Assembly: GCA_018303125.1 (NCBI GenBank)
Contig: JAGVYS010000001.1
Coordinates: forward strand, 5,886 to 69,885
DNA: 64,000 nt
Reading direction: 5' to 3'
DNA from: Candidatus Woesearchaeota archaeon
GTDB taxonomy: Archaea > Nanobdellota > Nanobdellia > Woesearchaeales > WJIZ01
Part shown: positions 2,570 to 31,400 of the stretch, piece after piece
Layout: the number at the start of each line of letters is the position of its first letter
Numbering within the stretch: position 1 is the first letter of the stretch
Translations under genes and position numbers: made by a program
Notes under the pieces: model-generated
Databases searched by the model: none
What the model was told of the DNA's origin: nothing
What the model saw: only the letters and a program-made list of their open reading frames with translations

Positions 2570-2570
2570 A

Positions 2571-4561: not shown

Positions 4562-4562
4562 G

Positions 4563-4793: not shown

Positions 4794-4804
4794 GTGAAAA
4801 AGAA

Positions 4805-5197: not shown

Positions 5198-5198
5198 G

Positions 5199-6304: not shown

Positions 6305-6306
6305 AA

Positions 6307-7318: not shown

Positions 7319-7319
7319 A

Positions 7320-8494: not shown

Positions 8495-8495
8495 G

Positions 8496-8927: not shown

Positions 8928-8928
8928 C

Positions 8929-11144: not shown

Positions 11145-11189
11145 AAAGTAACCCTAATATTTATATATCACAGGAGAATCCTGAAAAAC

Positions 11190-11468: not shown

Positions 11469-11527
11469 CAGCTTCGGCAACGTGCTGAAAATGAAAACAA
11501 AAATTCTTATGATGGAGGTCGTTTAAA

Positions 11528-11914: not shown

Positions 11915-11915
11915 A

Positions 11916-12095
11916 ATGCCATATATTGACATAAAGGTTGCTGGAAAGCTCACAAAGGAGCAAAAAGAAAAGATTTGCAGCGAAGTCACAAGGGTTATTT
12001 CTGAAATAACGAAAAAGAAGCCCGAAAGCCACTATGTTGTCATAGAGGAAGTGGAAAGGGAGAATTGGGCAGTTGGCGGCAAGCTTCTAGGATAA
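11916..12095 (+). CDS. 4-oxalocrotonate tautomerase family protein (59 aa), missed by the ORF track
   Basis: MPYIDIKVAGKLTKEQKEKICSEVTRVISEITKKKPESHYVVIEEVERENWAVGGKLLG has the N-terminal Pro1 and aligns along its whole length to YwhB/4-OT-type tautomerases. Confidence 0.7.
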   Translation: MPYIDIKVAGKLTKEQKEKICSEVTRVISEITKKKPESHYVVIEEVERENWAVGGKLLG

Positions 12096-13742: not shown

Positions 13743-13743
13743 T

Positions 13744-15270
13744 TTATCGCACCCAAAACTTCATTTCCTTAGTCTGCCTGAGGTCATTTCCGTAAAGCTG
13801 CCTTATATCAGAGATGTTCCAGTATTCTGAGATTATTCTGTCGAGGCCAAGCCCCCAAGCAAGGACAGGTACTTCTTCGCCCAATAATGGAGAGGTAAGC
13901 TCTGGCCTGAATATTCCTGCTCCACCAAGCTCAATCCATTCCTTTCTTTTTGGATGCAATACCTCGACTTCGCAACTGCAATAGGTATATGGAAAGTGTG
14001 CAGGCCTTATTCTCACATCAGAGTATCCCATCTTTGTGAAGAACTCCCTTAAGTATCCTTTCAGGTTTGTGAAATTCAAATCCTTGTCTACCACAATTCC
14101 CTCGACCTGATAGAACTCGAAGAGGTGCTTGTAATCAATAGCTTCATTCCTGAATACCTTTCCTACTGAAAAAAGCTTGCATGGCATGTCAGACTTCTTT
14201 ATTCTTGATAATGCATGCGCAGATAAAACAGTTGTATGTGTCCTCAAGAGATTTTCCTTGGCGAGTTCCTCTGACCATCCCTTTCCCCATCCTTTTGACC
14301 CTGTGGAAGAGCCTGTCTCATGCACATCCTTTATCTTTTTCCAGAACAGGGGCAATTTTCCTACCTTTGGTTCCTTCAGGTAAAATGTGTCCTGCATCTG
14401 CCTGGCTGGATGGTCCTGTGGAACAAAAAGGCAATCCAAATCCCAGAAGCTAAGCTGTACCATGCTGCCTGTCATCTCCTTGAAGCCCATGTCAATCCAT
14501 ATGGATTTTATGTAATCAACAGCCTGGCTGACAAAATGCCTTTTCCCACCGCTAACTTTAGGGACATTTATTCCTACATCATATTCCCTGAATGTCTTAC
14601 CCTTCCATTGCCCTGCCCTAAGAAGAGAAGGAGTCAATCTATCCTCTGTCTGTATTGTAACCTTTACTCCCTTAAGCTCCTTGCCGAAATCAGTGAGGCT
14701 TATGGATTTTATTTTTTCCCTAGATAAGGATATTATGTCTTTCCTCTTTGCCAACTGCTCAAGTGCAAATTTTTCTTCGGGTGCTATTCCTGAGGCATCC
14801 ATGGGAAACTCTTTCTCGAGAAATGCCTCCTCAAGGCTTTTCTTTCCGATAATTTTCTTTCCGTTCTCAGATATCCTGAAAAAAGGCTCCTTTTCTTTCC
14901 TTATCTCTATTGCAGCTTTTGACCTCAGTATGCCTATGCACACATTAATCTCTTCCCTGTCCAAGCTGCTTTTTTCTGCAATCTGAGAAAGTGTCATCTC
15001 TTTTTTATCTATTGCCTCGAGAAATCTCCTTTCAGGCAAGCCATTTTCCCTGTACTTAACACCATTAGTACCCAATTGCACAACGTCTTTTTCCTTCTCG
15101 CTGATTGAAACAGCTCCCTTATTGGATAGCCACTGGATAGCCCTCATAGCCTCAACGTCAGAAATCCCTGAATTATCAGCCAATAGCCTTAAATCTATGC
15201 CGTCTGTTATGTTAGGCAATACTTTCCTCTCCAGTATATGGAGATTCTGCGCAAGCTTTTTTGCATCCAT
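13744..15270 (-). CDS. pheS: Phenylalanine--tRNA ligase alpha subunit
   Basis: Class II motifs (FRPE..., GLGLDRI) and archaeal N-terminal wH extension. Confidence 0.9.
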   Translation of the reverse strand: MDAKKLAQNLHILERKVLPNITDGIDLRLLADNSGISDVEAMRAIQWLSNKGAVSISEKEKDVVQLGTNGVKYRENGLPERRFLEAIDKKEMTLSQIAEKSSLDREEINVCIGILRSKAAIEIRKEKEPFFRISENGKKIIGKKSLEEAFLEKEFPMDASGIAPEEKFALEQLAKRKDIISLSREKIKSISLTDFGKELKGVKVTIQTEDRLTPSLLRAGQWKGKTFREYDVGINVPKVSGGKRHFVSQAVDYIKSIWIDMGFKEMTGSMVQLSFWDLDCLFVPQDHPARQMQDTFYLKEPKVGKLPLFWKKIKDVHETGSSTGSKGWGKGWSEELAKENLLRTHTTVLSAHALSRIKKSDMPCKLFSVGKVFRNEAIDYKHLFEFYQVEGIVVDKDLNFTNLKGYLREFFTKMGYSDVRIRPAHFPYTYCSCEVEVLHPKRKEWIELGGAGIFRPELTSPLLGEEVPVLAWGLGLDRIISEYWNISDIRQLYGNDLRQTKEMKFWVR

Positions 15271-15278
15271 TTTGCTAC

Positions 15279-16082
15279 TTAATATGCTCTTGGGTAACTC
15301 CCGAGCACCTTCAGGAAGAAGCTTTTACTTATTGATTTAAAAGCATTTTTGACATCCAAGTCAGACTCATGCCCCTGGAGGTCTATGAAGAAGATGTAAT
15401 CACCAAGCTTGCCTTTGGAGGGCCTTGACTCAATCTTTGTGAGGTTTATGCCCCTGTTGGCGAATTCACCTATGAGCCCATATAGCAATCCTGCCTTGTC
15501 TTTATGAGGGTATATTGCAATGCTTGTCCTGTCCTTGCCTGTCCTTGCATGCGACTTTTTATCGAGTACTACGAAGCGTGTTACATTGAACCTGCTGTCC
15601 TGTATGTCTCTTGCCACGCATTTGAGATTGTATTTTTTTATTGCCATCATTGGGACTATAGCTCCATATCCCTTCCCTTTGCTCATTGCAAGCTTCTCTG
15701 CAGATTTAGCATTGCTTTCAGTAGGAATAACTTCCACATCTCCCAAATGTGCCCTTATGAACTTCTCGCATTGGGCAAAGGCCTGCAGATTAGAATAAAT
15801 TTTCTTTATTTTTCCGTCGTTTGCCGCGAGATTGTGCCTCACTGGTATTATGATCTCTGCGCATATCTTCAGGTTGAAATCCATCAGTGCATCAAGCGTA
15901 AGCCCCACAGTTCCAGATACTGAATTCTCCAACGGCGCAATTCCCTTTTCTGCCTTTCCCTGCTTTACACAATTGAAAACATTCCATATCGTAGTCTGAA
16001 GAAGTATGCTTGTATTTCCGCTGTATTTTATTGCTGCCTCATGGCTGAACGTTCCTATCGGTCCAAGAGTTGCGATTTTCAT
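15279..16082 (-). CDS. pheA: Prephenate dehydratase with C-terminal ACT domain; no chorismate mutase domain
   Basis: IATLGPIGTFSHEAA...ENSVSGTV PDT signature; ACT-like C-terminus. Confidence 0.85.
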   Translation of the reverse strand: MKIATLGPIGTFSHEAAIKYSGNTSILLQTTIWNVFNCVKQGKAEKGIAPLENSVSGTVGLTLDALMDFNLKICAEIIIPVRHNLAANDGKIKKIYSNLQAFAQCEKFIRAHLGDVEVIPTESNAKSAEKLAMSKGKGYGAIVPMMAIKKYNLKCVARDIQDSRFNVTRFVVLDKKSHARTGKDRTSIAIYPHKDKAGLLYGLIGEFANRGINLTKIESRPSKGKLGDYIFFIDLQGHESDLDVKNAFKSISKSFFLKVLGSYPRAY

Positions 16083-16933
16083 TTTTTCTTTACTCTTCTT
16101 TTTGCCAATGTTTCAATAAGGTAGTTGGTATATTCAAATGCTTCCTTGTTGAACTCTTGGAAATAATCCGAGCCATGCTTGAAATATGTCGCAAATTCCT
16201 CTATGTTCTTATCCTTTATTATGCTATAGAGCTTTGTGCACTCCTCAAGGTATGCTTTGATGGCTTTCAGGCTATACTCATTGTTTATGCATATCTGCGC
16301 ATACAGATATGGGTTCTGGTAGAGAAGCCTGCCGATAACATCCATGTTAAGGCGATATGTTGGGCTGCTGTATTCCTCTCCTTGCATGACATTAACTCCC
16401 ATCCTCTCCCATACATGGCTTAGGGTTATAGAGCTAAAATGTGTTACGGACTGTATAACTGACATCATCTTGTCATGATCTGCTGCAGTGCTTATTTTCA
16501 ATTTTGCACCTTCCTTGAGCAGCATCTTGATTAACCATTCTCTCCATTTCTCCCCTCTTCCAGGGCAGATTACCATGGTCTGGTTTCTGAATGTTGAAAC
16601 ATATGGTCCGAAGACAGGATGAGTTCCTACTACTTCAGCTTTTGAATACTTAAGCATGGCTTCTATCGGCTTTTCCTTTATTGAAGTTACATCCATAAGA
16701 AGGGAAGATTCCTTGATTAATGGCCCTACTTCTCTTATTACATCGCATGTTGCCTCTATTGGGACTGATATGACCACAATGTCTGCATCAGACACTGCTT
16801 TCTTTGGATCATCATTTCTTCCTATTAGCATGACATCGCACTTGTGCCTCTCGAAAAATCTTCCAAGCCATCTTCCCATCTGGCCTTTTCCGCCTATTAT
16901 AGTTGCTTTAATTCTCATTGAAGTTTGCCCCAA
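16079..16933 (-). CDS. tyrA: Prephenate dehydrogenase
   Basis: Rossmann GGKGQMGRWLG plus PDH C-domain; 4-nt overlap with pheA. Confidence 0.8.
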   Translation of the reverse strand: MGQTSMRIKATIIGGKGQMGRWLGRFFERHKCDVMLIGRNDDPKKAVSDADIVVISVPIEATCDVIREVGPLIKESSLLMDVTSIKEKPIEAMLKYSKAEVVGTHPVFGPYVSTFRNQTMVICPGRGEKWREWLIKMLLKEGAKLKISTAADHDKMMSVIQSVTHFSSITLSHVWERMGVNVMQGEEYSSPTYRLNMDVIGRLLYQNPYLYAQICINNEYSLKAIKAYLEECTKLYSIIKDKNIEEFATYFKHGSDYFQEFNKEAFEYTNYLIETLAKRRVKKK

Positions 16934-18176
16934 TTTTTTTCATCTTTTCAACAAAGTAAGGGAATGTGACTGAAATGTGCTCTGCATCCTTTATTTCCGT
17001 AATGCCGCTTGCACACATGCCAGCACATGCAAGGGACATTATCACTCTATGGTCCTTGTATCCATCGACATTTGCGCCGTGAAGACTGCTGCGCTCTATT
17101 AATAGGCCATCTTCAAGTTCAGTTATTGACGCGCCCATCTTCTTCAACTCAGAGCACATCACAGCTATCCTGTCTGTTTCCTTTATCCTGGCCTGCGGAA
17201 CATTCTTAAGGACAGTTTTTCCTGATGCAAAGCATCCGACAATAGAGAGTATTGGCAAAAGGTCCGGAGTAGAATTAAGGTCTATCTCCCTGCCTTTTAG
17301 ATTTCCTGCTTTTATTGATACATCCATGCCTGAAATATTTATCTTGCATCCCATTTTCTTTAGTATTTCAATTATTTCCTTATCGCCTTGTGAATCATTT
17401 ATATCAACGCCGCTAACGGTTATTTCTGAGCCGGTTATAGCTGCTGCGCATAACGGGAATGCCGCCGAAGACCAATCCCCGGGAATCATTTTTGAAAATG
17501 ACTTATAACTTTGCTTTCCGTAAACTGTAAAATTTTTTATTCCTTCTCTCTTGTATCTTATCCCTTGTTCATCAAGCCACTCTAAAGTAACATCTACATA
17601 TGGCTGCTCATTTAACTGGTCATAGATTGTTATTTTAGTGTCCCCTTCAAGAAGAGGGCATGCCAGCAATAGGCTGCTTATGTACTGCGAGGTTTTGCCT
17701 GACACAGAAGTGCTTCCTGGAGTTATAGGTCCTTTTACTGATAAAGGTGCAAAACCATTCATGGATTTTGTTTTTGCACCTAGAATCTCCAGTGATTTAA
17801 GCAGAGGGCCCATCTGCCTTGTCCTCAGAGAGCCATCACCGTCAAAAGTGATCTCTTTTTCCTGAATGGCTGCCATGCTTGCCATAAACCTCAAAGTTGT
17901 GCCTGAATTCCCTACATCAATCTTGCTTGCCTTGAATTTTGGCTTGCCGCCAAGTCCGTGTACTTTCCACTCCGTGTCTTTTTCTTCCACTCTTGCGCCT
18001 GCTGCCTTTATTGCTGATAAAGCAGAAAGTCCATCCCCGGAATTAAGGGCATTTCGTATTGTGGAATCGCCATCTGCGAGCATAGCTATTACAGCAGCCC
18101 TTATTGTATGCGACTTTGAGCCAGGTACAATTATTGTCCCTTCAAGCTTCTTGGTAAACCCGCTTGCCAGCTTCAT
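16908..18176 (-). CDS. aroA: 3-phosphoshikimate 1-carboxyvinyltransferase (EPSP synthase)
   Basis: PGSKSHTIRA..., LGNSGTTLRF... signatures. Confidence 0.92.
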   Translation of the reverse strand: MKLASGFTKKLEGTIIVPGSKSHTIRAAVIAMLADGDSTIRNALNSGDGLSALSAIKAAGARVEEKDTEWKVHGLGGKPKFKASKIDVGNSGTTLRFMASMAAIQEKEITFDGDGSLRTRQMGPLLKSLEILGAKTKSMNGFAPLSVKGPITPGSTSVSGKTSQYISSLLLACPLLEGDTKITIYDQLNEQPYVDVTLEWLDEQGIRYKREGIKNFTVYGKQSYKSFSKMIPGDWSSAAFPLCAAAITGSEITVSGVDINDSQGDKEIIEILKKMGCKINISGMDVSIKAGNLKGREIDLNSTPDLLPILSIVGCFASGKTVLKNVPQARIKETDRIAVMCSELKKMGASITELEDGLLIERSSLHGANVDGYKDHRVIMSLACAGMCASGITEIKDAEHISVTFPYFVEKMKKIGANFNEN

Positions 18177-18180
18177 TATT

Positions 18181-19242
18181 CTAAGCTCTCACCAGTCTCT
18201 GCGCAAGAACAGCATCTGCAAGAACTATGTTGGTCATGTGTTCTATCACAGGAACTGCTCTTGGGCATAAGCAAGGGTCATGTCTCCCTTCCACGCTTAT
18301 CTTGGTAGCCTTGCCCTTATCATCAACTGTGCTCTGCTCCTTTGTTATTGAAGAAGGTGCTTTTATGACTGCCCTGAATATTATGTCCTGTCCTGTTGAT
18401 ATTCCCCCAGATATTCCTCCGGCATTGTTTGTGCGCGTGCTTATCTTCCCGGCCTTTGAATAAAAGGAATCGTTGTTCTCAGAACCTTTAAGGCCTGCTG
18501 CGCCAAATCCGGAGCCGAACTCTATGCCCTTTACTGCGCCTATGGAAAGTATGGCTTTTGCAATATCTGCATCAAGCTTGTCAAATACGGGGTCACCTAG
18601 CCCTTGGGGAGGATTCTTCACTACCACTTCAATTATCCCACCTATAGAATCACCTTCTTTCTTGACAGACTCAATCAGCTTCTCCATCTTCTTTGCAGCT
18701 GTCTTGTCAGGGCACCTTACGCTGTTCTTCTCTATTTCGCCATAATCAATTTTTTCTGCCCTTATGTTTCCTACCTGGAGCGTATACGCTATTACTTTTG
18801 TTCCTGTTATTATCTTCTTTGCCACTGCGCCTGCAGCCACCCTGCAAAGAGTCTCCCTTCCTGATGACCTTCCTCCGCCCCTATAATCCCTCATCCCATA
18901 CTTATTCAGGAATGCATAGTCTGCATGCCCTGGCCTGAAGAGGTGCTTTATTTGCTCATATTTGGAGGAATCAGCATCCTTGTTTCTAACAATAATGCAT
19001 ACTGGCGCTCCTGTTGTCTTTTCTTCGAATATCCCTGAAAGTATCTCTATCTCGTCTTTTTCAGTCCTTGGCGAAGTTACGTTGCTCTGTCCGGGCCTTC
19101 TCCTGTCCATCTCGGACTGAATGTCTTCCTTGGAGACTCTAAGCCCTGCTGGAACACCATCTATGACTGTCCCAAGCGCAACTCCATGCGATTCCCCGAA
19201 GGTTGTTACCCTAAAATGCCTTCCGAATGTGTTTCCCATCAT
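18181..19242 (-). CDS. aroC: Chorismate synthase
   Basis: FGESHG...GGRSSGRET signatures. Confidence 0.92.
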   Translation of the reverse strand: MMGNTFGRHFRVTTFGESHGVALGTVIDGVPAGLRVSKEDIQSEMDRRRPGQSNVTSPRTEKDEIEILSGIFEEKTTGAPVCIIVRNKDADSSKYEQIKHLFRPGHADYAFLNKYGMRDYRGGGRSSGRETLCRVAAGAVAKKIITGTKVIAYTLQVGNIRAEKIDYGEIEKNSVRCPDKTAAKKMEKLIESVKKEGDSIGGIIEVVVKNPPQGLGDPVFDKLDADIAKAILSIGAVKGIEFGSGFGAAGLKGSENNDSFYSKAGKISTRTNNAGGISGGISTGQDIIFRAVIKAPSSITKEQSTVDDKGKATKISVEGRHDPCLCPRAVPVIEHMTNIVLADAVLAQRLVRA

Positions 19243-19757
19243 TTCACCTTCGTGATTATCTCGTCTGCAATGACCTCAACTGAGCGCCCCTTTTGGTCTA
19301 TCTCAACATCGGCCGCATCAGAATAAATTCTGGACCTTTCCTTAAAAAGCTTTTCGAATGAGCCTCTCTTGTCTTTTCCAAAAAATGGTATGTCCTGCCA
19401 CTCAATCCTATTGTAAAGTATATCTGGATCTTCCTTTAGGTATACTATCTGGCCCATTAAGGCAATATTATCCCGATTTTCTGGGTCATCAAGCGCTCCT
19501 CCTCCAATGGAGATTATAGAATTTTTTGAATTCGTTATTTTGCCTATTGCCTCTTTCTCAATTTCCCTGAAATATTCCTTGCCTTGCCTCCTGTAAATCT
19601 CCCTGCAAGTTGCCTTCTCTCCATTTTTTCCTAGGTATATCTCCTCGATTATTGAATCTGTATCTATAAAGTATTTTGATAGCCTTTTTGCAAGAATCCT
19701 GCCCAAAGTTGTTTTTCCTGATGCTTTGAATCCTATCAGTATTATATTATTGCCCAT
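19239..19757 (-). CDS. aroK: Shikimate kinase, bacterial AroK/AroL P-loop type
   Basis: Walker A GFKASGKTT, DTD, ISIGGGA, VYL, and a C-terminus that aligns with E. coli AroK. Confidence 0.85.
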   Translation of the reverse strand: MGNNIILIGFKASGKTTLGRILAKRLSKYFIDTDSIIEEIYLGKNGEKATCREIYRRQGKEYFREIEKEAIGKITNSKNSIISIGGGALDDPENRDNIALMGQIVYLKEDPDILYNRIEWQDIPFFGKDKRGSFEKLFKERSRIYSDAADVEIDQKGRSVEVIADEIITKVK

Positions 19758-21207
19758 AAAGAACCTTCTCTATTACTCCCTCCTGATGCCTTATCCCTGT
19801 CCAAAGTTCAAACTGCATTGCTGCCTGGTAGGCAAACATCCTTGCTCCAGATATTGTAACACATCCATTTTGTTTTGCCATTTTTAGCAGCTTTGTTTCC
19901 ATCGGATTGTATATTGCATCGAATACCGTAATGCCTTTAAGGTGCTTTTTCTCTACTGGGGATTTATTTATGTTTGGATGCATTCCAACAGGTGTTGAAT
20001 TTATCAGTATCTCGACATCATCCCAATTTATCTTTGATAGTGACGTGAATTTGCAATTAAGTTTTTTTGCAAGCCTCCTCGCCTTTTCCTCTGTCCTGCT
20101 AGTTATAGTAATTTTCCCGCCTTTAAGTTTTATCCCGTATCCTATTGCCCTTGCTGCGCCACCTGCGCCAATCAATATTGTGCTCTTCCCCTTTATGCTT
20201 ATTTTATCTTCTATTGCACTAATTGCACCGTATGCATCTGTGTTATACCCTCTCATATTTTCTCCATCAACCAATACGGTATTTACTGCACCTATCTTCA
20301 TTGAATCTTCATGCGTGCTATCTAGATAACTCGTTATCTCTTCCTTATAAGGCATAGTTACACTGAATCCTGAGAGCATGCTCCTAAAACTCTTTACAAA
20401 CTCCCCCAGATTGTCTACATGAAAGTTAAGGTAGACTGCATTAAGATTGTGCTTCTTGAAAAGATAGTTATGCACTATGAATCCTTTGCTCTTTGAGACA
20501 GGATTGCCAACAAGGCCGTATATTTTCAGGTTTTTAATTTTAAGCTTGTCTGCCCTGTAGATTCTTTTAAGCTCCTCGCACGGTATCTGTCCGGGAGAGG
20601 TCTCCTTTCCTGTGGCTACTGAACCAAAAGTTAAGTATGCGCCATACGCAAGGTTCAGTATCCTCGATATCTCCCCCTTCTCTCCCATACACAATGCAAT
20701 TATCCTTACCCCTTCTTTTCTTGCCTTCTTTATTATGTCAAGCATGATAAGGTTGTCTGATATGCTTCTTGCCATACACGCTATCTTTATTATGTCCCCT
20801 CCCAAAGATTTCATTTCCTCATATATGGAATGGATATTTTTAGGCACCCCTGAAAAATTATGGTAGGAGATGATTATTTTTGTCCTTCCTTTTCCGCTCA
20901 GAATTCTGTCAATTGCTTTTTTTCCCGAACTCATCTCTATGTCAACATAATCCGCCCCACGAGCAATGCATTCTTGCAGCAATTCTATCCTATTCTTCTC
21001 CTTCCGGCTGAAAATCCCTCCATCTTTCTTTTTCCTACAGGTGAATATTATGGGCAATCTTTTCTTCGAAGATATCTTGCTTATGCCATTTTCTGGAATT
21101 TTCTTTATGCCGTCAAGCCTTATCTCGGCCAAATCAGCACAGTTTTCATTGGATAAAATCTTGATTATCTCATCTATAGAAGAAGCTACAACTGACCTGC
21201 ATATCAC
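19747..21207 (-). CDS. aroDE: Bifunctional 3-dehydroquinate dehydratase (type I) / shikimate dehydrogenase fusion
   Basis: N-terminal half is the type I DHQase TIM barrel; C-terminal half has SDH signatures (GAGGAARA Rossmann). Confidence 0.85.
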   Translation of the reverse strand: MICRSVVASSIDEIIKILSNENCADLAEIRLDGIKKIPENGISKISSKKRLPIIFTCRKKKDGGIFSRKEKNRIELLQECIARGADYVDIEMSSGKKAIDRILSGKGRTKIIISYHNFSGVPKNIHSIYEEMKSLGGDIIKIACMARSISDNLIMLDIIKKARKEGVRIIALCMGEKGEISRILNLAYGAYLTFGSVATGKETSPGQIPCEELKRIYRADKLKIKNLKIYGLVGNPVSKSKGFIVHNYLFKKHNLNAVYLNFHVDNLGEFVKSFRSMLSGFSVTMPYKEEITSYLDSTHEDSMKIGAVNTVLVDGENMRGYNTDAYGAISAIEDKISIKGKSTILIGAGGAARAIGYGIKLKGGKITITSRTEEKARRLAKKLNCKFTSLSKINWDDVEILINSTPVGMHPNINKSPVEKKHLKGITVFDAIYNPMETKLLKMAKQNGCVTISGARMFAYQAAMQFELWTGIRHQEGVIEKVLYGQ

Positions 21208-22283
21208 ATGAGTTCACCTATTGCTCTCTCGGCTATTTTCGAGCCGACCCTTACTCCAATTCTTGAGTTTCCTATCCCTACTGGAAGTACATATTTTACG
21301 CCATCTGAAGTATTCTTCTTGTCTGCTGATGTATTGAGCAATATCTTCTCTACAGGCTGCTTCTTGTAAGGAAGCAATAGCTTTCGTACTAATGAGGTTA
21401 TCCTAGAATAATCATTTTCTTGGACCATGCCAAGGTTTCTTGCCATCGCTGTCTCTGCCAGAATGCCAAGGGCAACAGCCTGCCCATGCTTGATTGAATA
21501 GCCGGAAGCTGATTCTATTGCATGCCCTATAGTATGCCCGAGATTTAGAACTTTCCTCAATGAAGATTCTTTCTCATCCTTCTCAACTATGCTTTTTTTT
21601 ATTGAGGTGCACCAGTAAACGGCTTTAATCAGCGTTTCTTTATCAAGGGAAATTATTTTTTCAACTGAATTTTCCATGAATATGAAGAATTTTTTGTCCA
21701 GGGCTATTGCATGCTTTACCATTTCAACTGTTCCATTTATCATCTCTTCCTTGGGAAGTGTCTTCAGCATATCCATGTCCATATATACTGCGGAAGGCTG
21801 GTAAAATGTCCCTATCATATTTTTCCCATATGGTATGTTTATCCCTGTCTTGCCGCCTATGCTGCTGTCCACCATTGCAAGAAGCGTTGTTGGGTACTGG
21901 ATGTAAGGGATACCCCTCATGTAAGTAGATGCAACATATCCTGTAATATCTCCTACAACCCCTCCTCCCAATGCTACGATAGCTGAATCCCTCCTGAATT
22001 CGAGCGAAAACAACTCATCCTCTATTGCCTCCTTCGTTTTCCTGTTCTTGCTCTTCTCTCCTGCTTCAAAGCTTATCAGTTCTGCCTTAATGCCTGAGCT
22101 GCGAAGCCTTTCCAGATGCGTGCTTCCATGAAATTTCTTTACTTCAGAATCTGTAATAATTGCAACCTTTGAGAATCCCCTGAGTTTTTCCGAAAGTTTA
22201 TGAATGAGCCCGGTGCCGAGCAGAATTGTATAGCTGTAATCTTTCTGCCTTATCCTTACCTTTAGCTCATTGTTGCGTGGCAT
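21204..22283 (-). CDS. aroB: 3-dehydroquinate synthase
   Basis: [14 protein letters not shown]...GGKTGIN..., HAIE... metal ligands. Confidence 0.9.
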
Positions 22284-22284
22284 A

Positions 22285-23295
22285 TCATAATGTCCTTCCT
22301 ATTGCCCTGGATAAGTCCTTCAACTCATGCATAAGCTTGCCGAAATCCTCTGTGCTTATTGTCTGGTCTGCATCAGAAACTGATTTTTCGGGGTGCGTAT
22401 GTACTTCCAGCAGCAGGCCATCTGCACCTGCGGCAACCGCTGCCTTGGCAATAGGATTCACAAGGCTCCTTCTTCCTGTGCCGTGGCTTGGGTCCGCTAT
22501 TACAGGAAGATGTGTAAGTTCCTTCAAAGCAGGAACAGCTGCTATGTCTATAGTGTTTCTTGTGTAATTCTCAAATGTTCTTATGCCTCTCTCGCAAAGT
22601 ATCACTTCCCTATTGCCGCTGGACATGATGTATTCTGCTGCAAGAAGCAATTCATTATAGGTTGCCCACATTCCTCTTTTTAGCAGCACAGGCTTCATTG
22701 TTTTGCCCACTTCCTTAAGAAGAGGGTAGTTCTGCATGTTTCTCGTGCCTATCTGCAGGATATCAGAATATTTTGAAACAATGCCGACGTACCTTGGGTC
22801 CATTACCTCTGTGACTATTGGCAAGCCGGTAGCTTTCCTTACTTTTGCAAGTATTTTCAGACCTTCTTCTCCAAGGCCCTGGAAGTCGTAAGGCCCTGTC
22901 CTTGGCTTGAATGCTCCTCCCCTTAATATCTTTGCTCCATATTTTTTTACCCTCATTCCTATCTCAAGCATCTGCTCTTCAGATTCCACAGAGCATGGCC
23001 CTGCTATAACGATTATTTCTTTCCCGCCAAATACAACATTGCCGACTCTTACTTTGCTTTGGCTCTTTCCCTCTTTGCTGGCAAGCTTGTAAGGCTTTAG
23101 AACCTCTATGACCTTCTCTACCCCGTCCATGGCTGACAGGGAATCCTTATGCAGAACCCTTTCATTCCCTACTATCGCAATTACAGTACGTTCAGTGCCT
23201 ACTATTGGCACAGGCTTAAGCTTCGATGCCTTGACAGCTTCGATTACTTTGTCAGCCTGTTTGGCTGTTGTGCCTTTCTTCATTATTATTATCAT
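22285..23295 (-). CDS. 3-deoxy-7-phosphoheptulonate (DAHP) synthase, class I-beta, with N-terminal ferredoxin-like regulatory domain
   Basis: Residues ~1-70 ([16 protein letters not shown]...[11 protein letters not shown]) align with the T. maritima DAHPS FL domain; the rest is a KDO8PS/DAHPS I-beta barrel (GPCSVES..., ADPSHG). Confidence 0.85.
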
Positions 23296-23353
23296 TCTCG
23301 CTCACCCACTGAAGTATTATGCAATAAGATATGCATGAAGAAAAATAAATATG

Positions 23354-24163
23354 CTACTTCTTCGCTATAGGCTTCATTTCATTCCATGCAAGGTCAAATA
23401 GCGTTGACATAGCCGAGGCAAAAAATGGCGTGTTCACCCATATCCCTACGTCATATGTCGGGTGTATGTCTACGTCATTCATAACCATGAAGATTATTTC
23501 TTCCCTGTCAACTATTATAAAGCGTGCATTTACATCTGTGTTCCTGACCTCGGCAACTGAGCCAAGGTCCTTGATGGCCTGCATGCATTCCTTGGTTGCA
23601 GGTACAGCTATTTTTATGTCCACTCCTCTTTTCTTAAGCTTTTCAAGAGTTGGCTTGAAGCCCTCAACTTTTCTTATGAGGCCCTGAGGAGTAGTCATTA
23701 TTATGACCTGTTCCTCTGCTTCCCTAATCGTCAATTCAAGGTGATTGTAGAGATTGTGCCTTCCCCTAATGCTTCCTGACAAATCAGATGGCTCAACTAA
23801 TTCCACTCCTTGCTTATGCAGGGCATTAAGCTCCTGGATAACGTCCGTGCTCTTCAATTCCTCGAGCCTCTTCATCTGCTCCTTTGCGTCCTTCTGTACA
23901 TTCTTCTTTACTCTCTCGAGCACTTCTGCAGGTTCTACGGCTATGTACTTTATCGGCTTCCCGAGCTTCATAATCACGAACCCTTTTTTCTCAAGGCTCT
24001 CGAGAACATCATAACTCCTAGATCTTGGAACATTTGCAATATCAGAAAGTTCACCTGCAGTAGAAACTCCCCTTGAAAGGAGCGCTGCCCATATTTTTAC
24101 CTCATAGAGATTAAGACCAAAGTACCTGCGCAATTTGCTTAAAAATTCATCTTTTACTATCAT
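23354..24163 (-). CDS. TrmB-family transcriptional regulator (paralog 1), at the head of the aromatic operon
   Basis: N-terminal TrmB wHTH (YEVKIWAALLSRGVSTAGELSDIANVPRSRSYDVLESLEKKGF) plus TrmB C-terminal effector-like domain; GAGGGGG Shine-Dalgarno before the ATG. Confidence 0.75.
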   Translation of the reverse strand: MIVKDEFLSKLRRYFGLNLYEVKIWAALLSRGVSTAGELSDIANVPRSRSYDVLESLEKKGFVIMKLGKPIKYIAVEPAEVLERVKKNVQKDAKEQMKRLEELKSTDVIQELNALHKQGVELVEPSDLSGSIRGRHNLYNHLELTIREAEEQVIIMTTPQGLIRKVEGFKPTLEKLKKRGVDIKIAVPATKECMQAIKDLGSVAEVRNTDVNARFIIVDREEIIFMVMNDVDIHPTYDVGIWVNTPFFASAMSTLFDLAWNEMKPIAKK

Positions 24164-24185
24164 TTTACACTACCCCCTCTTTTTT

Positions 24186-24207
24186 AACAGGAAAGCCTTT
24201 TCCTGTT
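24186..24207. promoter_or_regulatory. Perfect inverted repeat AACAGGAAA-N4-TTTCCTGTT in the acs/trmB-1 intergenic region, about 20-40 nt upstream of the trmB-1 ATG
   Basis: Read directly from the sequence; candidate operator or 5'-UTR hairpin. Confidence 0.3.
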
Positions 24208-24372
24208 ATTAAGGGGTAATCTGAATCTACTACTATTAATATATTACTATTTTTCACCATGCGATAGTACGCATAATCTATTCTAAGGATACGCTTTCCC
24301 CACTGAATAGTTTATACATCTTGCTTATATATAAAGATTTATATGTTAAAAAGACGAGAGAATATTAAGCGG

Positions 24373-26346
24373 TTATTTCTCAATCCCTTTTATTATCTCC
24401 TCAACAACAGAAGGGTCTGCCAAGGTTGTTATGTTGCCAACATCTTTCTTGCCCTCTGCCAATAACCTAAGGATTCTCCTCATTATTTTTCCAGATCTAG
24501 TCTTTGGAAGGGCTTCAACGAATTGTATCTTGTCCGGCTTTGCTATAGGGCCTGTCTCTCTTCCCACGTGTGCCCTTAGTGCTTCCTTGAGTGAATTGTC
24601 GCCATTTACTCCCTTCTTCAGTGTCACAAATGCGTAAAGGGCCTGTCCTTTTATTTCATGGGGAAAAGGGACTATTGCGGCCTCTGCAACTGCCTCATGG
24701 CTGACGATTGCACTCTCTACTTCTGCTGTGCCTATTCTGTGCCCTGAAACCTTGATGACATCATCTATCCTTCCCATCAGCCAATAATCTCCCTCTGCAT
24801 CCTTCTTTGCGCCGTCGCCTGTAAAATAAAATCCCCTGAACCTTTTCCAGTAAGCCTCTATGAACTTTTGATGGTCCCCATAGACAGTCCTCATCATTCC
24901 TGGCCATGGCTTCCTTATGCAAAGGTATCCTCCTGTATCTGCCTTTACTTCCTTACCGTCCTCTCCGAGGACAACCGGTTCTATCCCCGGAAACGGTTTT
25001 CCTGCAGAGCCCGGCTTTAAGGTAGATGCTCCCGGAAGAGGAGTTATCAGTATTCCGCCTGTTTCTGTCTGCCACCATGTGTCCACTATAGGGCATCTCC
25101 TGTCTCCGACAACTTCATAGTACCATAACCATGTTTTGGGGTTTATTGGCTCCCCTACTGTGCCAAGCAATCTTAGAGAACCAAGGTTGTGTCTCTTCAC
25201 AGGCTCTTCCCCGAACTTGGCTACAGCCCGGATGGCTGTTGGCGCTGTATAGAAAACTGTGACCTTGAACTTCTCTATTATCTTCCAAAACCTGTCGACA
25301 TCCGGAAAGGTTGGTGTGCCTTCAAACATAAGGATTGTCGCAGCATTGCTCAACGGGCCATATATTATGTAGCTATGGCCTGTAATCCACCCTATGTCAG
25401 CAGTGCACCAGTATACGTCGGTATCATGGTGGTCAAATATCCACCTGAATGTAAGGTTTACATAAGCAAGGTATCCTCCTGTTGTATGAAGGACTCCTTT
25501 TGGCTTGCCTGTTGTTCCTGAAGTATAAAGGATAAACAAGGGGTCTTCAGCATCATTCTCAGCAGGATTGCAGATATCTTTAATACTTCGAGAAGAGACT
25601 TCATCATGCCAATAAGAATCCCTTTTTCCCTTCATCTTTATTTTTTGGGAGGTATGCTTTACAACTATGACATGTTTGATGCAGTTGCATCCCTCCAAGG
25701 CAATATCCGCCATATCCTTGAGTGGCACGTCCTTGCCTGCCCTCCATAAGCCGTCTGAGGTTATAAGCAACTTGCATTTTGAGTCAAGTATCCTGTCTCT
25801 TAAAGCCTCCGAACTGAACCCTGCAAAAACAACGCTGTGTATCGCACCTATTCTTGCACATGCCAGCATTGCAATTGCTGCCTCAGGTATCATAGGAAGG
25901 TAAACGCACACCATATTGCCTTTGCGCACTCCCTTTTTCTTCAGGACATTGGCAAACCTGCATGTTTCTCTGTAAAGCTCACCATATGTTAGCCGCCTTA
26001 CCTGCTCTTCTGATTCTCCTTGCCATATTATGGCTGTCTTATCGGCGTTTTTCTCAAGATGCCTGTCAAGGCAATTACAGGATGCATTTATTTTTCCTCC
26101 ATCAAACCATGAAAAAACTGCCTTTCTTTTGTCCCACTTAAAAGTCCTTTTCCATTTCCTGAACCAGTGAAGCTCACTTGCTTTTTCTTCCCAGAATTTC
26201 TCAGGAGAGGATATAGAACGTTGGTATATAGAATTATACTCCTTCTCGCTCTTTACGTGTGCTCTCTTGCTGAATATTGCAATAGGCCTTATCTTTCTTT
26301 TTCCCTTGCTGAGGGAGCTTATTGCATCATTCATTACAAAAAACAA
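24373..26346 (-). CDS. acs: Acetyl-CoA synthetase (AMP-forming)
   Basis: YTSGTTGKPKGV AMP-binding motif and Acs N-terminus (PEKFWEE); alternative start 26334. Confidence 0.92.
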   Translation of the reverse strand: MFFVMNDAISSLSKGKRKIRPIAIFSKRAHVKSEKEYNSIYQRSISSPEKFWEEKASELHWFRKWKRTFKWDKRKAVFSWFDGGKINASCNCLDRHLEKNADKTAIIWQGESEEQVRRLTYGELYRETCRFANVLKKKGVRKGNMVCVYLPMIPEAAIAMLACARIGAIHSVVFAGFSSEALRDRILDSKCKLLITSDGLWRAGKDVPLKDMADIALEGCNCIKHVIVVKHTSQKIKMKGKRDSYWHDEVSSRSIKDICNPAENDAEDPLFILYTSGTTGKPKGVLHTTGGYLAYVNLTFRWIFDHHDTDVYWCTADIGWITGHSYIIYGPLSNAATILMFEGTPTFPDVDRFWKIIEKFKVTVFYTAPTAIRAVAKFGEEPVKRHNLGSLRLLGTVGEPINPKTWLWYYEVVGDRRCPIVDTWWQTETGGILITPLPGASTLKPGSAGKPFPGIEPVVLGEDGKEVKADTGGYLCIRKPWPGMMRTVYGDHQKFIEAYWKRFRGFYFTGDGAKKDAEGDYWLMGRIDDVIKVSGHRIGTAEVESAIVSHEAVAEAAIVPFPHEIKGQALYAFVTLKKGVNGDNSLKEALRAHVGRETGPIAKPDKIQFVEALPKTRSGKIMRRILRLLAEGKKDVGNITTLADPSVVEEIIKGIEK

Positions 26347-27493: not shown

Positions 27494-28660
27494 ATGAGAA
27501 AGTCCCAATCGGCAATGAATGCGGCAGTGCTAATAACGATTGTTTCTGCCCTGATTATCCTCTATATAATACTGCTCCCTTCAGACAAAAGGCTGGAGCT
27601 TATAGGTGAAAACCGCTCATCATCCGAAACAGGCACAGAAGGGAAGATTCTTGTTGAGGACAAGGAAATAGTGATGGAGCACTTCAACGACGACAGCAAG
27701 GACTATGATAAAATTCCTTCTGTTAACCTCTACACAAAAAAAAGCTCTAAAGAGATATTCGAAGACAGCTCAGTTTATGTCAAAACATCTGTATTTGGAA
27801 AGGAAACAAAGGAGATTCCATTCAGTGTTGATGATGTGGATAATACAGATAATCTGCTTCTTTCATTTTTTGTAAAGAAGCATAGTGGCAGGCTCATGGT
27901 TTCTGTAAATGAGAGAGAAGTTTTCAATAATTATATAGAAAGCATAAACGTAGAGCCTATAAGCATACCTAATAGCATCCTGGCAAAGAGCAATATACTA
28001 AAACTTGAGGCTTCTGGGGTAGGCTTTGCATTCTGGGCAAAGAATGAGTATCTGCTTGAGGAGATTAAGATAACTGCCGACATAACAGATGTTTCTGCAA
28101 GGGGCTCAGAGGTTACTTTTAATGTTCCAAAATCAGAGATAAGCAACATTGACAAAGCAACACTTAGGTTTGTCCCTGAGTGCCAAGAGGGAAAGGTAGG
28201 CATACTTGAAGTTAGCATAAACGGAAAAGGAGTATTCTCTGGTGTGCCTGATTGTGGCATACCCAGGCCTTTGAGTTTTGCCCCTGAGCTTCTTGTTTCT
28301 GGGCCAAATAAGATATCCTTCCATAGCGATGAGGGTAGGTACCTTATAGACCAAATAAAGGTTACAACAGATTTTGACGAGCCGCCATCCTATACTTATT
28401 TCTTTGATGTTGACAATGCCTTGCTTAAGGATATAAACAGCAAAAAGAAAGTAGTCAATCTTACAATGTTCTTTGTGGATGATGAAGAAGACAAAGAAGC
28501 GGAGATTTTCATAAATGATAGAAAAACATTCATGAGAAGGCATAATGACTTCGAGTTCAGCAGAAACATAGGTGAATTCCTTGAAGTAGGGTCTAACTCC
28601 CTAAAAGTCGTGCCTGAGAGAAGGATGGAAGTCAGGAAGCTGGTTGTAAGGGCTGAATAG
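27494..28660 (+). CDS. Signal-anchored extracytoplasmic protein with three internal ~90-aa repeats (hypothetical)
   Basis: N-terminal hydrophobic anchor (AAVLITIVSALIILYIILL); repeat pattern L.F.V...V.N.R..F...G.N.LK recurs three times. Confidence 0.55.
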   Translation: MRKSQSAMNAAVLITIVSALIILYIILLPSDKRLELIGENRSSSETGTEGKILVEDKEIVMEHFNDDSKDYDKIPSVNLYTKKSSKEIFEDSSVYVKTSVFGKETKEIPFSVDDVDNTDNLLLSFFVKKHSGRLMVSVNEREVFNNYIESINVEPISIPNSILAKSNILKLEASGVGFAFWAKNEYLLEEIKITADITDVSARGSEVTFNVPKSEISNIDKATLRFVPECQEGKVGILEVSINGKGVFSGVPDCGIPRPLSFAPELLVSGPNKISFHSDEGRYLIDQIKVTTDFDEPPSYTYFFDVDNALLKDINSKKKVVNLTMFFVDDEEDKEAEIFINDRKTFMRRHNDFEFSRNIGEFLEVGSNSLKVVPERRMEVRKLVVRAE

Positions 28661-28766: not shown

Positions 28767-31400
28767 ATGGTTTTCAAATGGATTAATAACAAACTGGGTG
28801 CTGGTAAAGCTAGGTTTGATAGTTCTGCGCCGGTGGTATGGACAAAGGACAAAGTAGATAGGACAAGGTCTACGATAGGCTCAGAGAGTGCCGAGGCAGA
28901 CAAGTTCAGGTCAAAAGGTGCCTTAACAACTATGCTAATTTTGGCCCTTTTAATAAATTATATTCTGGAAGGGTTCATTCCTGCATTCAGGTTTTCTGGC
29001 TTCGAGTTAAGTTTTTTCATCGGGACAATAGTCTACGGCGATTGGGTCGGAATATACAACCTTTTCCATTTCAACATTTTCTTCCTTCTTGTTGCATTTG
29101 CGGTATTCAATCTGAGAAACGGGAAGCCCCATATTCTCAGAGTATGGCTCGGTCTAATACTTATTGCTTACTTGCTTAGCTCAATACCCATACTCAACAC
29201 CTATATGGGCATAAGGAATTTTATTGAATTAATCATGCTGATAATTTCTGCCATTTACCTTTCCTTCAGTGAGACAACAAAAGAGGATTTCATATCTACT
29301 ATTGTTGTTATGTGGGCTTTCTACAACATTTTCTTCTTCGGCATTACTAGCACTATAGGAGGCCTGACTCATTTCATATTCATCATCCTTTTCTTCATAA
29401 TTTTCTGCATGGGAAACCACTTTGCAGAAGATAGGACTCAGATAAAATGGTGGCTCATAATACTAATCCTGTTTGATTTTTTCCTTCCGCAAATTCTTAA
29501 GGCGGCTTATCCTACTATACCTGTTGACTCCCTGCCATGGCTTACTTTCGGAATGGTAATATTTGGTAATGTCTACAAGCCGTATTGGTTCCCGAGATTT
29601 TTGCTTATAGCGCTGGTTGCATTCTATTTCCTGCAATATGCTTTCGCAGGCAATGATACATTTGCCCAGATAATTGGCCAGAGGGGTGCAGACCAGGAAA
29701 ACATAGCTGAGAGAATGAAGTTCCTAAACCCGAAAGAATGGTTAAACAGGATAACTCAGTGGACAAATCAATCTGTATATTATGCCTCAGGTCAAAACTA
29801 TTATGCGGGAAGGGTGGATGAGAACGCGAAGAAAGACCTTGGAGTGTTTATAGAGGGGATGGACCGTAACGATAAGATATTTTACGACAATGAAAGGATA
29901 ATAATCGATGCAAACCTAAAGGCCCAGAACTTCGTATCTGAAGAGGACGTTGGCTTTGAATCTCTCACCATACAGCTGGATTGCTGGGCGCAACAAAATG
30001 GGAAAAATTTCGCCCATGGAAAGATTTATCCGAAAAACAAGTATGAGATTGACGCATTTGATACTGAGAGCATACAGTGCATATTCGATCCATGGCAGCT
30101 CCAGCTTGGCTCATATGATATAATTATAGAGGCAACATTTAACTTCCAGACTCAGACATACCTCAAAAGATATTTTGTAAATACCCTGCTTTTAGACTCC
30201 CTCAAAAGTAAAAAAGTAATTGAAAAAGACTCAGACATATTGAAACTGAACAAGATAAGTGATACTATGCCTTCTGCAAAGAACAGCGCAGGTCCAGTGG
30301 AAATACGCGTGTCTGATCAGGTTCCAAGCATAATAGAGCTTAGCAATGAGATTGACACAAAGCAGATATTTGGCGTGCAGATTGCCAACAGATGGAGAGG
30401 CGAAATAAAGAGGATAAAGGGATTTGAGTTTTACCTACCGGACGGCATATATCTTGATGAAGGATACTGCACATTTGCTATGGGTATCGATGCTATAAGC
30501 GACAGCAGGTTTGAGGGCTACATCAAATACTCGCTCCAGGAAAAGAACAACATCAGGCTGAGAAACATAAAGAAGGAAATTGTACAGAGATGCTCGCTTG
30601 CCATGAAAAAAGGAGACATTGAAAAAGTCCTTGGGCCTGAGGATGTTACCACAAGGTATATACAATTGAAGACTGATTATGACTACCTTATGAAGGAAAG
30701 CGTAGGAATAACAGTTGCAGAGCCTCCTGGCGTAAACATGAAGATTTTCTCGCCTGACAGGGGCGCTATAGATTCAGGCAGCATGCCACTATGCAAGATA
30801 ACCTATGACAAAAAGGAGTCATTTATCCTATGGCTCCTTGGCGCAGCAGGAGTTGGCCTTAAGAACACTGTTGTTTTCGAGCTTTATGCTGGTGACAGTC
30901 TTGTAGAGCCTATGGTGCAGGAGCAATGTACCGAGGCAAGGTGCGAGCACTTTTACGAAAAAACGTTCCCTAAAGGCACAAAATTGAGATGCAAGGCAAC
31001 AGTGGATACTTCCAGATTTGATGAGCCTGCAGAGTGGCAGGAGCCAGAGGCTTACGTCATTGTGAAAAACAGCGCCCCAGTTGTTAAAAGCGTAGACTAT
31101 CTGAGGGATGCAAATTATGGTCTTACAACGAGAGAGTATGTCAAAGGTGACATTGCCATCTGTTCTGCAAGCGTTGAGGACAGAGATAATGATGAAATAA
31201 TTGCAGAGTTCAGCTTCGAGGGCTTTGATGTTGCCCCGACGACAAAGGAGTGCAGGGGCAACTGCTTCGTTGAAATCCCCACAGGAAGTGCACAAAAGGC
31301 AACAGCTATGACCTGCAAAGTAAGGGTTTTCGACGGAGAGGATTATAGCAAAGAAGTATCAACCAATGCGAATCTGGTTATGTTAGGTGCATCACCTTGA
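28767..31400 (+). CDS. Large polytopic membrane protein (about 8-9 TM in residues ~50-330) with a ~550-aa Cys-rich C-terminal ectodomain (hypothetical)
   Basis: Hydrophobic-helix pattern in the N-terminal third; many Cys in the C-terminal domain; no family recognised. Confidence 0.55.
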   Translation: MVFKWINNKLGAGKARFDSSAPVVWTKDKVDRTRSTIGSESAEADKFRSKGALTTMLILALLINYILEGFIPAFRFSGFELSFFIGTIVYGDWVGIYNLFHFNIFFLLVAFAVFNLRNGKPHILRVWLGLILIAYLLSSIPILNTYMGIRNFIELIMLIISAIYLSFSETTKEDFISTIVVMWAFYNIFFFGITSTIGGLTHFIFIILFFIIFCMGNHFAEDRTQIKWWLIILILFDFFLPQILKAAYPTIPVDSLPWLTFGMVIFGNVYKPYWFPRFLLIALVAFYFLQYAFAGNDTFAQIIGQRGADQENIAERMKFLNPKEWLNRITQWTNQSVYYASGQNYYAGRVDENAKKDLGVFIEGMDRNDKIFYDNERIIIDANLKAQNFVSEEDVGFESLTIQLDCWAQQNGKNFAHGKIYPKNKYEIDAFDTESIQCIFDPWQLQLGSYDIIIEATFNFQTQTYLKRYFVNTLLLDSLKSKKVIEKDSDILKLNKISDTMPSAKNSAGPVEIRVSDQVPSIIELSNEIDTKQIFGVQIANRWRGEIKRIKGFEFYLPDGIYLDEGYCTFAMGIDAISDSRFEGYIKYSLQEKNNIRLRNIKKEIVQRCSLAMKKGDIEKVLGPEDVTTRYIQLKTDYDYLMKESVGITVAEPPGVNMKIFSPDRGAIDSGSMPLCKITYDKKESFILWLLGAAGVGLKNTVVFELYAGDSLVEPMVQEQCTEARCEHFYEKTFPKGTKLRCKATVDTSRFDEPAEWQEPEAYVIVKNSAPVVKSVDYLRDANYGLTTREYVKGDIAICSASVEDRDNDEIIAEFSFEGFDVAPTTKECRGNCFVEIPTGSAQKATAMTCKVRVFDGEDYSKEVSTNANLVMLGASP

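Follow-up and report, generated by a model that had tools for sequence, protein, structure and literature searches.

Within the TrmB family of archaeal regulators, TrmB and TrmBL1 possess an extra C-terminal domain that binds an effector sugar, whereas TrmBL2 does without it (PMC4877046; PMC3031468). TrmBL2 is an abundant, highly conserved protein and the only TrmB member found in all Thermococcales (PMC4877046), and its described roles are those of a global repressor and a chromosomal protein (PMC3031468). Both TrmB-family control of shikimate genes and the presence of a regulator within an archaeal aro operon are already documented: TrmB of Halobacterium salinarum (VNG1451C) is self-regulating, recognizes TACT/AGTA half-sites, and directly targets shikimate pathway genes (PMC2710871), and Tar (TK0271), which has MarR-like relatives, is encoded inside the aro operon of Thermococcus and recognizes a TGGACA-N8-TGTCCA operator in its target promoters (PMC6737238). 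Our literature search returned no reported link between TrmB-like proteins and the aro clusters of DPANN archaea. Here we analyze a gene at such a cluster in a 64-kb stretch of DNA (hereafter, the window) from a Candidatus Woesearchaeota archaeon (contig JAGVYS010000001.1), where the listing of open reading frames (ORFs) places an ORF of 269 amino acids (aa) with an ATG start at positions 23354 to 24163 of the minus strand. The original prediction for this gene was that a TrmB-family regulator heads an aromatic amino acid super-operon and controls shikimate and Phe/Tyr synthesis, possibly with an amino acid or an intermediate as its effector. We favor, with moderate confidence, a different reading: the gene would be transcribed separately and probably regulate itself, and its product, of the TrmBL2 type and present throughout the clade, would serve as a general DNA-binding protein or global regulator; its place beside the DAHP synthase (DAHPS) gene would reflect inherited gene order.

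Membership in the TrmB family is clear from the helix-turn-helix (HTH) domain PF01978, which matched aa 14 to 78 (E = 8.5 × 10−20; 70.8 bits versus a gathering score of 25.6). The second family profile, PF11495 (Regulator_TrmB), was matched over its first half only (profile positions 5 to 133 of 233; aa 132 to 264). Among the NCBIfam models, the best alignment was to TrmBL2 (aa 3 to 258); those for TrmB, TrmBL1, and halo-TrmB gave 50 to 64 bits versus cutoffs of 500 to 650 and aligned only with the N-terminal part, stopping at aa 165 to 223. A phmmer search of PDB sequences aligned Pyrococcus furiosus TrmBL2 (PDB code 5bpd) end to end (residues 4 to 262 versus 3 to 260 of 264; E = 1.9 × 10−21), as it did all three TrmBL2 entries (5bpd, 5box, and 5bqt; E of about 2 × 10−21), and matched TrmB (3qph) over the HTH only (aa 14 to 101). 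In a Foldseek search with the predicted structure, the eight best PDB matches were TrmBL2 chains (E of about 10−15; 273 to 276 aligned columns), and the C-terminal domain resembled the PLD/Zucchini/NucT folds. The sugar-binding C-terminal subdomain of TrmB and TrmBL1, which brings those proteins to a total of about 340 aa, was not found by Pfam, NCBIfam, or PDB searches, the window protein ending at aa 269. By these comparisons, the protein has the TrmBL2 architecture of about 264 aa, with an extended winged HTH (wHTH), a coiled-coil dimerization helix, and a single PLD-like domain, and the C-terminal effector pocket whose modeling had been proposed is not present in its usual form. In an alignment of orthologs, the wHTH is near-invariant and the PLD-like domain carries the invariant motifs GRHNLYNH, HPTYD, and W-N-PFF.

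The gene is strongly conserved. More than 8,000 homologs were scored, the best 120 being 76 to 100% identical and coming from Woesearchaeota/Nanoarchaeota (DPANN) assemblies, which indicates that the gene is real. In species-representative genomes, relatives were confirmed at at least 552 candidate sites, the 80 best of which (72 to 86% identical to the window protein) constitute our species set. Across these 80 loci, the identity to the respective window proteins is 31 to 51% for Pelota, 39 to 55% for PheRS-alpha, 54 to 69% for acetyl-CoA synthetase (ACS), and 47 to 71% for DAHPS; identity is about 45% for Pelota versus 72 to 88% for the TrmBL2-like orthologs of Woesearchaeota. The TrmBL2-like gene is the slowest evolving in its neighborhood, and it shares with TrmBL2 the trait of high conservation and clade-wide presence, being more conserved than PheRS and Pelota. 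In 24 loci without aro or pentose phosphate pathway (PPP) genes within 6 to 8 kb on either side, the median pairwise identity is 77% for the TrmBL2-like protein versus 51% for PheRS-alpha, and between loci with and without such genes it is 77.5% versus 43%. On these values, the strong conservation is independent of nearby aro genes. The wider family, clustered at 50%, comprises 197 representatives with E values of ≤10−30, mostly of 255 to 275 aa. Its distant members (41 to 56% identical) adjoin genes for ribosomal proteins L13/S9, Trm1/RNase H/FtsZ/GatD, DNA ligase/Pelota, FKBP, or a HAD hydrolase, and none of those whose loci were compared lies near aro genes or sugar transporters.

The next gene downstream on the minus strand is that for DAHPS (22285 to 23295; PF00793, E = 4 × 10−80, with the ferredoxin-like N-terminal domain PF18152), across a gap of 58 nucleotides (nt) (23296 to 23353). 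The predicted position directly upstream of DAHPS, on the same strand, was thus confirmed, with the correction that this strand is the minus one. The AT-rich, promoter-like stretch claimed for the gap is also there: it is 67% A+T, versus 58% for the whole window, and the proximal upstream region of DAHPS (23296 to 23337, minus strand), as read from the sequence, contains a weak TATA-like GCATAATA (23315 to 23322) and a Shine-Dalgarno (SD)-like GGGTGAG (23301 to 23307). The tightly packed operon that follows (12096 to 23295, minus strand, from Pfam matches and ORF coordinates) encodes, in order, DAHPS with an FXD domain, DHQS, an AroD-AroE fusion, AroK, AroC, AroA, PDH, PDT-ACT, PheRS-alpha, and PheRS-beta, and its genes overlap or are separated by ≤8 nt, versus the 58 nt before DAHPS. 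Oligo-T is the archaeal intrinsic terminator signal, and a T-run resembling such a terminator, TTTATTTTTCTT, lies just after the stop codon of the TrmBL2-like gene (23338 to 23349, minus strand). A run of at least five Ts within 30 nt of the stop codon is found in 85% of the 80 orthologs, compared with 18% of other ORFs, and such runs follow 0 to 14% of the DAHPS, DHQS, AroDE, AroA, AroK, and AroC genes. The post-stop T-runs and the close packing of the aro-PheRS genes together imply that the operon starts at DAHPS. In relatives, chorismate mutase (CM) and PheRS each have a TATA box of their own, some 25 nt ahead of the ATG. A few relatives have only 17 to 32 nt between the TrmBL2-like gene and the next gene, so some read-through is possible there. 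The TrmBL2-like gene nevertheless appears to be a transcription unit of its own and not a cotranscribed first cistron; with its own promoter blocks (see below) and the oligo-T signal, the notion that it heads a super-operon as one transcription unit was not borne out. The pathway has a plausible layer of control that needs no transcription factor, in that Pfam finds the FXD domain on DAHPS and an ACT domain on PDT, both of which mediate feedback inhibition by aromatic amino acids in characterized homologs.

Upstream, the gene for ACS (24373 to 26346, minus strand; Pfam), a neighbor that is present upstream in 32 of the 80 loci, ends 209 nt before the TrmBL2-like gene. The intervening region (24164 to 24372, minus strand) and its counterparts in the species set (L001 to L080) share a layout that runs from a distal TATA box over a palindrome or 5′ hairpin to a near-invariant stretch of 30 nt; a T-run often comes next, and in a final hairpin CCCC is paired with the SD GGGGG. 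This dual promoter-like arrangement could represent tandem promoters with operators or a structured or attenuating leader RNA. The proximal promoter-like block P2, GGTGAAAAATAGTAATATATTAATAGTAGT (24229 to 24258, minus strand), combines a B recognition element/TATA-like sequence with a conserved TAGTAGT; its 30-nt form, GGTAAAAAAnCGTAACATATTAATAGTAGT, is near-invariant, with a copy in 69 of the 81 upstream regions that were compared among orthologs (≤5 mismatches in 19), and the flanking AAAAA, which was outside the search pattern, is conserved as well. P2 has no second copy in the window, and of the 44 copies of TAATAGTAG in 1.02 Mb of loci, 33 lie upstream of the TrmBL2-like gene. The distal block P1 is a canonical TATA box, TTTATATA (24328 to 24335, minus strand), 172 nt before the ATG, and about 50 of the 81 loci have TTTAWATA at this fixed distance (155 to 190 nt before the ATG). 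AAACTATTCAGTGG (24300 to 24313, minus strand), which coincides with or closely follows the predicted start site of P1, is a degenerate copy of the clade-wide palindrome TWACT-N4-AGTWA, all 30 exact matches of which in the 1.02 Mb of loci are upstream of the TrmBL2-like gene. The palindrome resembles the TrmB-family operator TACT-N7-8-GAGTA (PMC2710871). AAACTATTCAGTGG is a candidate autoregulatory operator or a candidate 5′ arm of an RNA hairpin, and RNA folding predicts that the window copy pairs within a longer hairpin.

Neither the palindrome nor the P2 motif was found before CM, transketolase (Tkt), DAHPS, or PheRS in the 1.02 Mb of loci. The operator search that the original prediction had proposed for the region upstream of DAHPS therefore came out against a local target, with none of the motifs tested common to the gene's own upstream region and those of DAHPS, CM, Tkt, and PheRS. 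Within the window, the upstream regions of the regulator and DAHPS have nothing in common except the 9-mer TTCAGTGGG (chance expectation of about 0.05), which we dropped when a comparison of five gaps between the TrmBL2-like gene and DAHPS yielded T-runs as the only shared 7-mers. A regulon defined by TAACT-N4-AGTTA in the window was likewise rejected, with four one-mismatch hits versus 2.25 expected and none near aro genes.

These motifs raise the alternative of a sequence-specific global metabolic regulator like Halobacterium TrmB, autoregulated via TWACT-N4-AGTWA and governing a scattered regulon with or without aro genes; it would receive its signal by way of a partner protein or its PLD-like domain, in place of a sugar barrel. 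The similarity of the palindrome to the Halobacterium operators, the autoregulation of that TrmB (PMC2710871), and the location of the palindrome at or shortly past the predicted distal start site, where archaeal repressors act, all speak for it, as do the invariant wHTH, the strongly conserved motifs of the C-terminal domain, and a second paralog (see below) with TACTAT-N3-ATAGTA over its own TATA-like region. However, confinement of the palindrome to the gene's own upstream region across 1.02 Mb, without enrichment in the window, leaves no visible regulon; the window copy is degenerate and can be read as a hairpin arm, and the base-pair covariation described next points, for part of the region, to RNA and not to a protein site. 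We consider this alternative unlikely.

The leader of the gene is predicted to fold into a hairpin (24171 to 24219, minus strand) in which the SD G-run (24172 to 24179) pairs with a C-run (24213 to 24216) around an inner stem of AACAGGAAA and TTTCCTGTT (24199 to 24207 and 24186 to 24194). Its minimum free energy is −24.7 kcal/mol (z = −4.6 versus 200 dinucleotide shuffles), and the 152-nt upstream stretch of the window as a whole folds with a z of −6.1. Folding predicts the pairing of the SD G-run with a C-run for 36 of the 53 distinct leaders of orthologs, among which the inner stems differ in sequence. A long-range helix in 24 related loci has 17 compensatory cells versus 6.7 ± 2.3 in shuffles, a count that relatedness of the loci can inflate, and the upstream regions fold somewhat better than control upstream regions (mean z of −1.33 versus −0.47; Mann-Whitney P = 0.0035). 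Rfam gave nothing above noise for the whole window, the locus, or the upstream region of one relative. When the long leaders were aligned with MAFFT, RNAalifold recovered the outer C:G pairs only, the inner stems being misaligned. A C/D box sRNA in the upstream region was discarded, since the loci, judged by eye, do not have the putative C box in common, as was a scan for sigma-70 promoters and hairpin terminators, whose counts were at the level of shuffles and whose model does not apply to archaea. From the conserved elements as a whole, autoregulation of the TrmBL2-like gene is probable, with the elements acting as DNA operators, RNA structure, or both.

The neighborhoods of the 80 species loci, compared by TBLASTN, ORF clustering, and Pfam, follow a conserved order. 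Two genes (orf877 and orf388) divergent from Pelota are followed by Pelota itself, in some loci ACS, and the TrmBL2-like gene; then comes a block of CM or a 181-aa protein, a split transketolase (N and C parts), optionally an EamA half-transporter, transaldolase (Tal), optionally a Drg GTPase, DAHPS/DHQS or the archaeal AroA′/AroB′, AroDE through to PDH and PDT, and finally PheRS-alpha and PheRS-beta. In the fullest examples (L177, positions 1166 to 21014; also L131, L174, and L175) this makes a codirectional run of about 17 kb, Pelota-ACS-TrmBL2-like-CM-TktN-TktC-Tal-Drg-DAHPS-DHQS-AroDE-AroA-AroK-AroC-PDH-PDT-PheRS-alpha-PheRS-beta, in which gaps of a few nucleotides join PheRS to the aromatic amino acid cluster. 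The 181-aa protein, which has no Pfam match, occupies the slot of CM between the TrmBL2-like gene and transketolase in L010 (3961 to 4506) and six other loci. TBLASTN found no CM, Tkt, or Tal homolog in the 64-kb window, and it is because this segment is missing that DAHPS abuts the TrmBL2-like gene here.

We could evaluate 113 loci, 72 in species genomes with at least 1.2 kb downstream and 41 in metagenomes (≥68% identical). Aro and/or PPP genes lie downstream on the same strand in 38 of the 72 species loci, PheRS without aro/PPP genes in 18, and neither in 16; the corresponding metagenome counts are 17, 16, and 8 of 41. Ten of the 72 species loci have PheRS-alpha as the very next gene, and DAHPS is an immediate neighbor in only 4 of 80. 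The proposed comparative test thus upheld a linkage to PPP/shikimate genes in about half of the loci and gave little for direct adjacency to DAHPS. No sugar ABC transporter gene appeared among the neighbors compared or annotated in 160 loci, and no glycolytic gene was seen nearby in the loci examined, so the genomic association typical of sugar-responsive TrmB was not seen; transketolase and transaldolase do act on sugar phosphates, but their place here is in the supply route to the aro pathway. Orthologs standing consistently beside sugar ABC transporters with no aro linkage, which would have spoken against the original prediction, are therefore not what these genomes hold. Linkage to aro genes does exist but is limited to a single clade, and linkage to Pelota and PheRS is at least as strong.

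This linkage is one ground for the view closest to the original prediction, in which the neighboring PPP-shikimate-Phe/Tyr-PheRS block is switched on or off by a dedicated local regulator, which binds the promoter of that block and senses an aromatic amino acid or intermediate through its C-terminal domain. Codirectional adjacency is kept in the 38 of 72 and 17 of 41 loci; a search from the DAHPS side found the TrmBL2-like gene upstream in all three Woesearchaeota aro clusters that it reached, one of which has the complete codirectional run from Pelota to PheRS; the fullest relatives unite everything from ACS and the TrmB gene through CM-Tkt-Tal-Drg, aro, PDH, and PDT to PheRS in a single codirectional run; and the gap to the next gene shrinks in some loci to the 17 to 32 nt noted above. 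Precedents exist in Tar inside the Thermococcus aro operon (PMC6737238) and in Halobacterium TrmB acting on shikimate genes (PMC2710871), and the second paralog is divergent from a LeuA/CimA gene. Yet the protein has no effector-binding barrel, is equally conserved where aro/PPP genes are not nearby, and changes more slowly than PheRS and Pelota do, an unusual pace for a pathway-specific factor. Its gene has a terminator signal of its own and shares no upstream motif with DAHPS, CM, Tkt, or PheRS, only T-runs recurring in the five DAHPS gaps. Homologs in other lineages, with their housekeeping neighbors, lack aro linkage; the fourth DAHPS, which is the only one in a non-Woesearchaeota genome context, has no TrmB gene within 10 kb; and Pelota and the two uncharacterized genes beside it are just as syntenic without any functional link. 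We therefore assign a dedicated role in shikimate and Phe/Tyr synthesis a low probability: the family membership, position, and linkage behind that claim hold up, and the control drawn from them is doubtful.

We also entertained, as a still more tentative proposal, a pair of nonexclusive ideas taken jointly. The 150- to 170-nt leader would be a new cis-regulatory RNA, the transcript from the distal promoter setting the level of a chromatin-like protein through its 5′ hairpin, long-range helix, and SD-hiding hairpin while the proximal promoter yields an unstructured, translatable mRNA; and the protein would be the master regulator of an ancestral 17-kb super-operon, governing PPP-shikimate-Phe/Tyr-PheRS genes by sensing a metabolite via its invariant PLD-like domain and not a sugar barrel.

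Our preferred reading, that of a TrmBL2-type general DNA-binding protein or global regulator, can be put as follows. A protein made of an extended winged-helix domain plus a helix for dimerization and a PLD-like domain, with no effector-sugar subdomain, would be the product of a clade-wide core gene of Woesearchaeota under unusually strong purifying selection. Expressed from its own conserved promoter region through an SD-sequestering leader and ended by its own oligo-T terminator, it most likely acts as TrmBL2 does in Thermococcales, coating or bridging DNA through paired wHTH domains, by analogy with that protein, and its synthesis is probably controlled via the conserved elements found only before its own gene. 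The predicted pI of 8.4, the strong SD, and the conserved promoter block are indirect hints only toward an abundant DNA-coating protein. The inherited order would be Pelota-(ACS)-TrmBL2-like-[CM-Tkt-Tal-(Drg)-aro-PDH-PDT]-PheRS, with CM-Tkt-Tal missing in the window; the aro-PheRS operon would start at DAHPS and have its flux probably controlled at the enzyme level, via FXD on DAHPS and ACT on PDT.

Several observations weigh against this reading. The score for the NCBIfam TrmBL2 equivalog NF041141 is 81.3 bits versus a cutoff of 530, which falls short of orthology, and the identity to P. furiosus TrmBL2 is only 28 to 29%; a TrmBL2-like function is hence an analogy and not an orthology. The structure used in the fold comparison is an AlphaFold model of modest confidence (pLDDT of 73; pTM of 0.53). 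The invariant motifs of the PLD-like domain could form a ligand or partner site, and a conserved palindrome before the gene itself suggests that binding is sequence specific, a property equally in keeping with an ordinary transcription factor. In Halobacterium, shikimate genes are indeed under the control of a TrmB-family factor (PMC2710871), and codirectional adjacency in about half of the orthologous loci, with three of three aro clusters reached from DAHPS, exceeds what chance leftovers would give. Finally, the loci called free of aro genes are so only within the flanks given above.

Should the preferred reading hold, a core DNA-binding protein of TrmBL2-like type, better conserved than a subunit of an aminoacyl-tRNA synthetase, would be present in Woesearchaeota and probably in other DPANN archaea as well. 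This large group is uncultured and has tiny genomes with few regulators, and the protein would be a candidate for its chromatin protein or global regulator; the automatic annotation "sugar-specific regulator TrmB" would be misleading. Gene order in these genomes is so conserved that adjacency alone does not indicate regulation. Were the protein a dedicated regulator after all, it would be the first one proposed for the way DPANN archaea make aromatic amino acids, as well as a member of the TrmB family that works without the usual effector subdomain.

The window encodes a second TrmBL2-like paralog of 270 aa (50421 to 51233, minus strand; 52% identity over 269 aa and E = 9 × 10−92 in TBLASTN, supported by Pfam). 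It sits among the genes for Hjc, EndA, FEN1, and MCM and is divergent from a gene for a LeuA/CimA-type synthase (51487 to 53034, plus strand); upstream of it, the TACTAT-N3-ATAGTA palindrome lies over a TATA-like stretch. Two GCTATAGC palindromes occur near the leuA start. The syntenic orthologs of this paralog, in L154 and L160, are only about 53% identical, and a metagenome scan with it as the query was of little use, since it mostly recovered orthologs of the first paralog (68 to 84% identical) and second-paralog synteny in those two loci only. By sequence divergence, the second paralog would seem to evolve like an ordinary regulator, unlike the first. The nearby MCM helicase gene (53784 to 57197, plus strand; 1,137 aa in all) is interrupted by an intein with a LAGLIDADG homing endonuclease domain.

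Other features of these neighborhoods deserve mention. The aro cluster of the window uses a bacterial-type DAHPS (FXD), DHQS, and AroK, and the relatives L009, L036, and L061 have the archaeal AroA′/AroB′ route in the same slot. At L176, a DAHPS-PDT pair (DAHPS homolog P0377) that is 60% identical lies beside a Ser/Thr kinase, TPR proteins, Roadblock/LC7, and an Arf-like GTPase, a context suggesting that this type of DAHPS is shared across distant lineages. The two genes divergent from Pelota encode, in the window, proteins of 388 aa (27494 to 28660, plus strand) and 877 aa (28767 to 31400, plus strand), which are syntenic in most loci and only 21 to 57% identical.

Set against the described systems, the window protein is closest to TrmBL2 (P. 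furiosus PF0496, PDB codes 5bpd, 5box, and 5bqt; Thermococcus kodakarensis TK0471), with which it shares length, domain order, an end-to-end alignment, and the lack of a sugar subdomain; like TrmBL2 in Thermococcales (PMC4877046; PMC3031468), it is highly conserved and ubiquitous within its clade. It differs in its low identity and its score below the equivalog cutoff, in its origin from mesophilic DPANN archaea and not hyperthermophiles, in the presence of two paralogs in one genome, and in the conserved palindrome, dual promoter-like region, and SD-sequestering leader of its gene, which are not features of TrmBL2 as described; DNA coating, tetramers, and abundance would be carried over to it by analogy. 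With TrmB and TrmBL1 (Tgr) of Thermococcales it shares the N-terminal wHTH, the coiled coil, and the first, PLD-like half of the C-terminal region, but it is about 70 residues shorter and lacks the effector-binding subdomain. Halobacterium TrmB has a sugar-sensing C-terminal part, a glucose response, and targets defined by chromatin immunoprecipitation, and the halo-TrmB model of NCBIfam aligns with the window protein over aa 8 to 192 only (62 bits versus a cutoff of 500). As with Tar of Thermococcales, a regulator gene is placed with aro genes; unlike Tar, the TrmBL2-like gene stands outside the packed operon, behind a T-run, and shares no common operator with it among the motifs tested.

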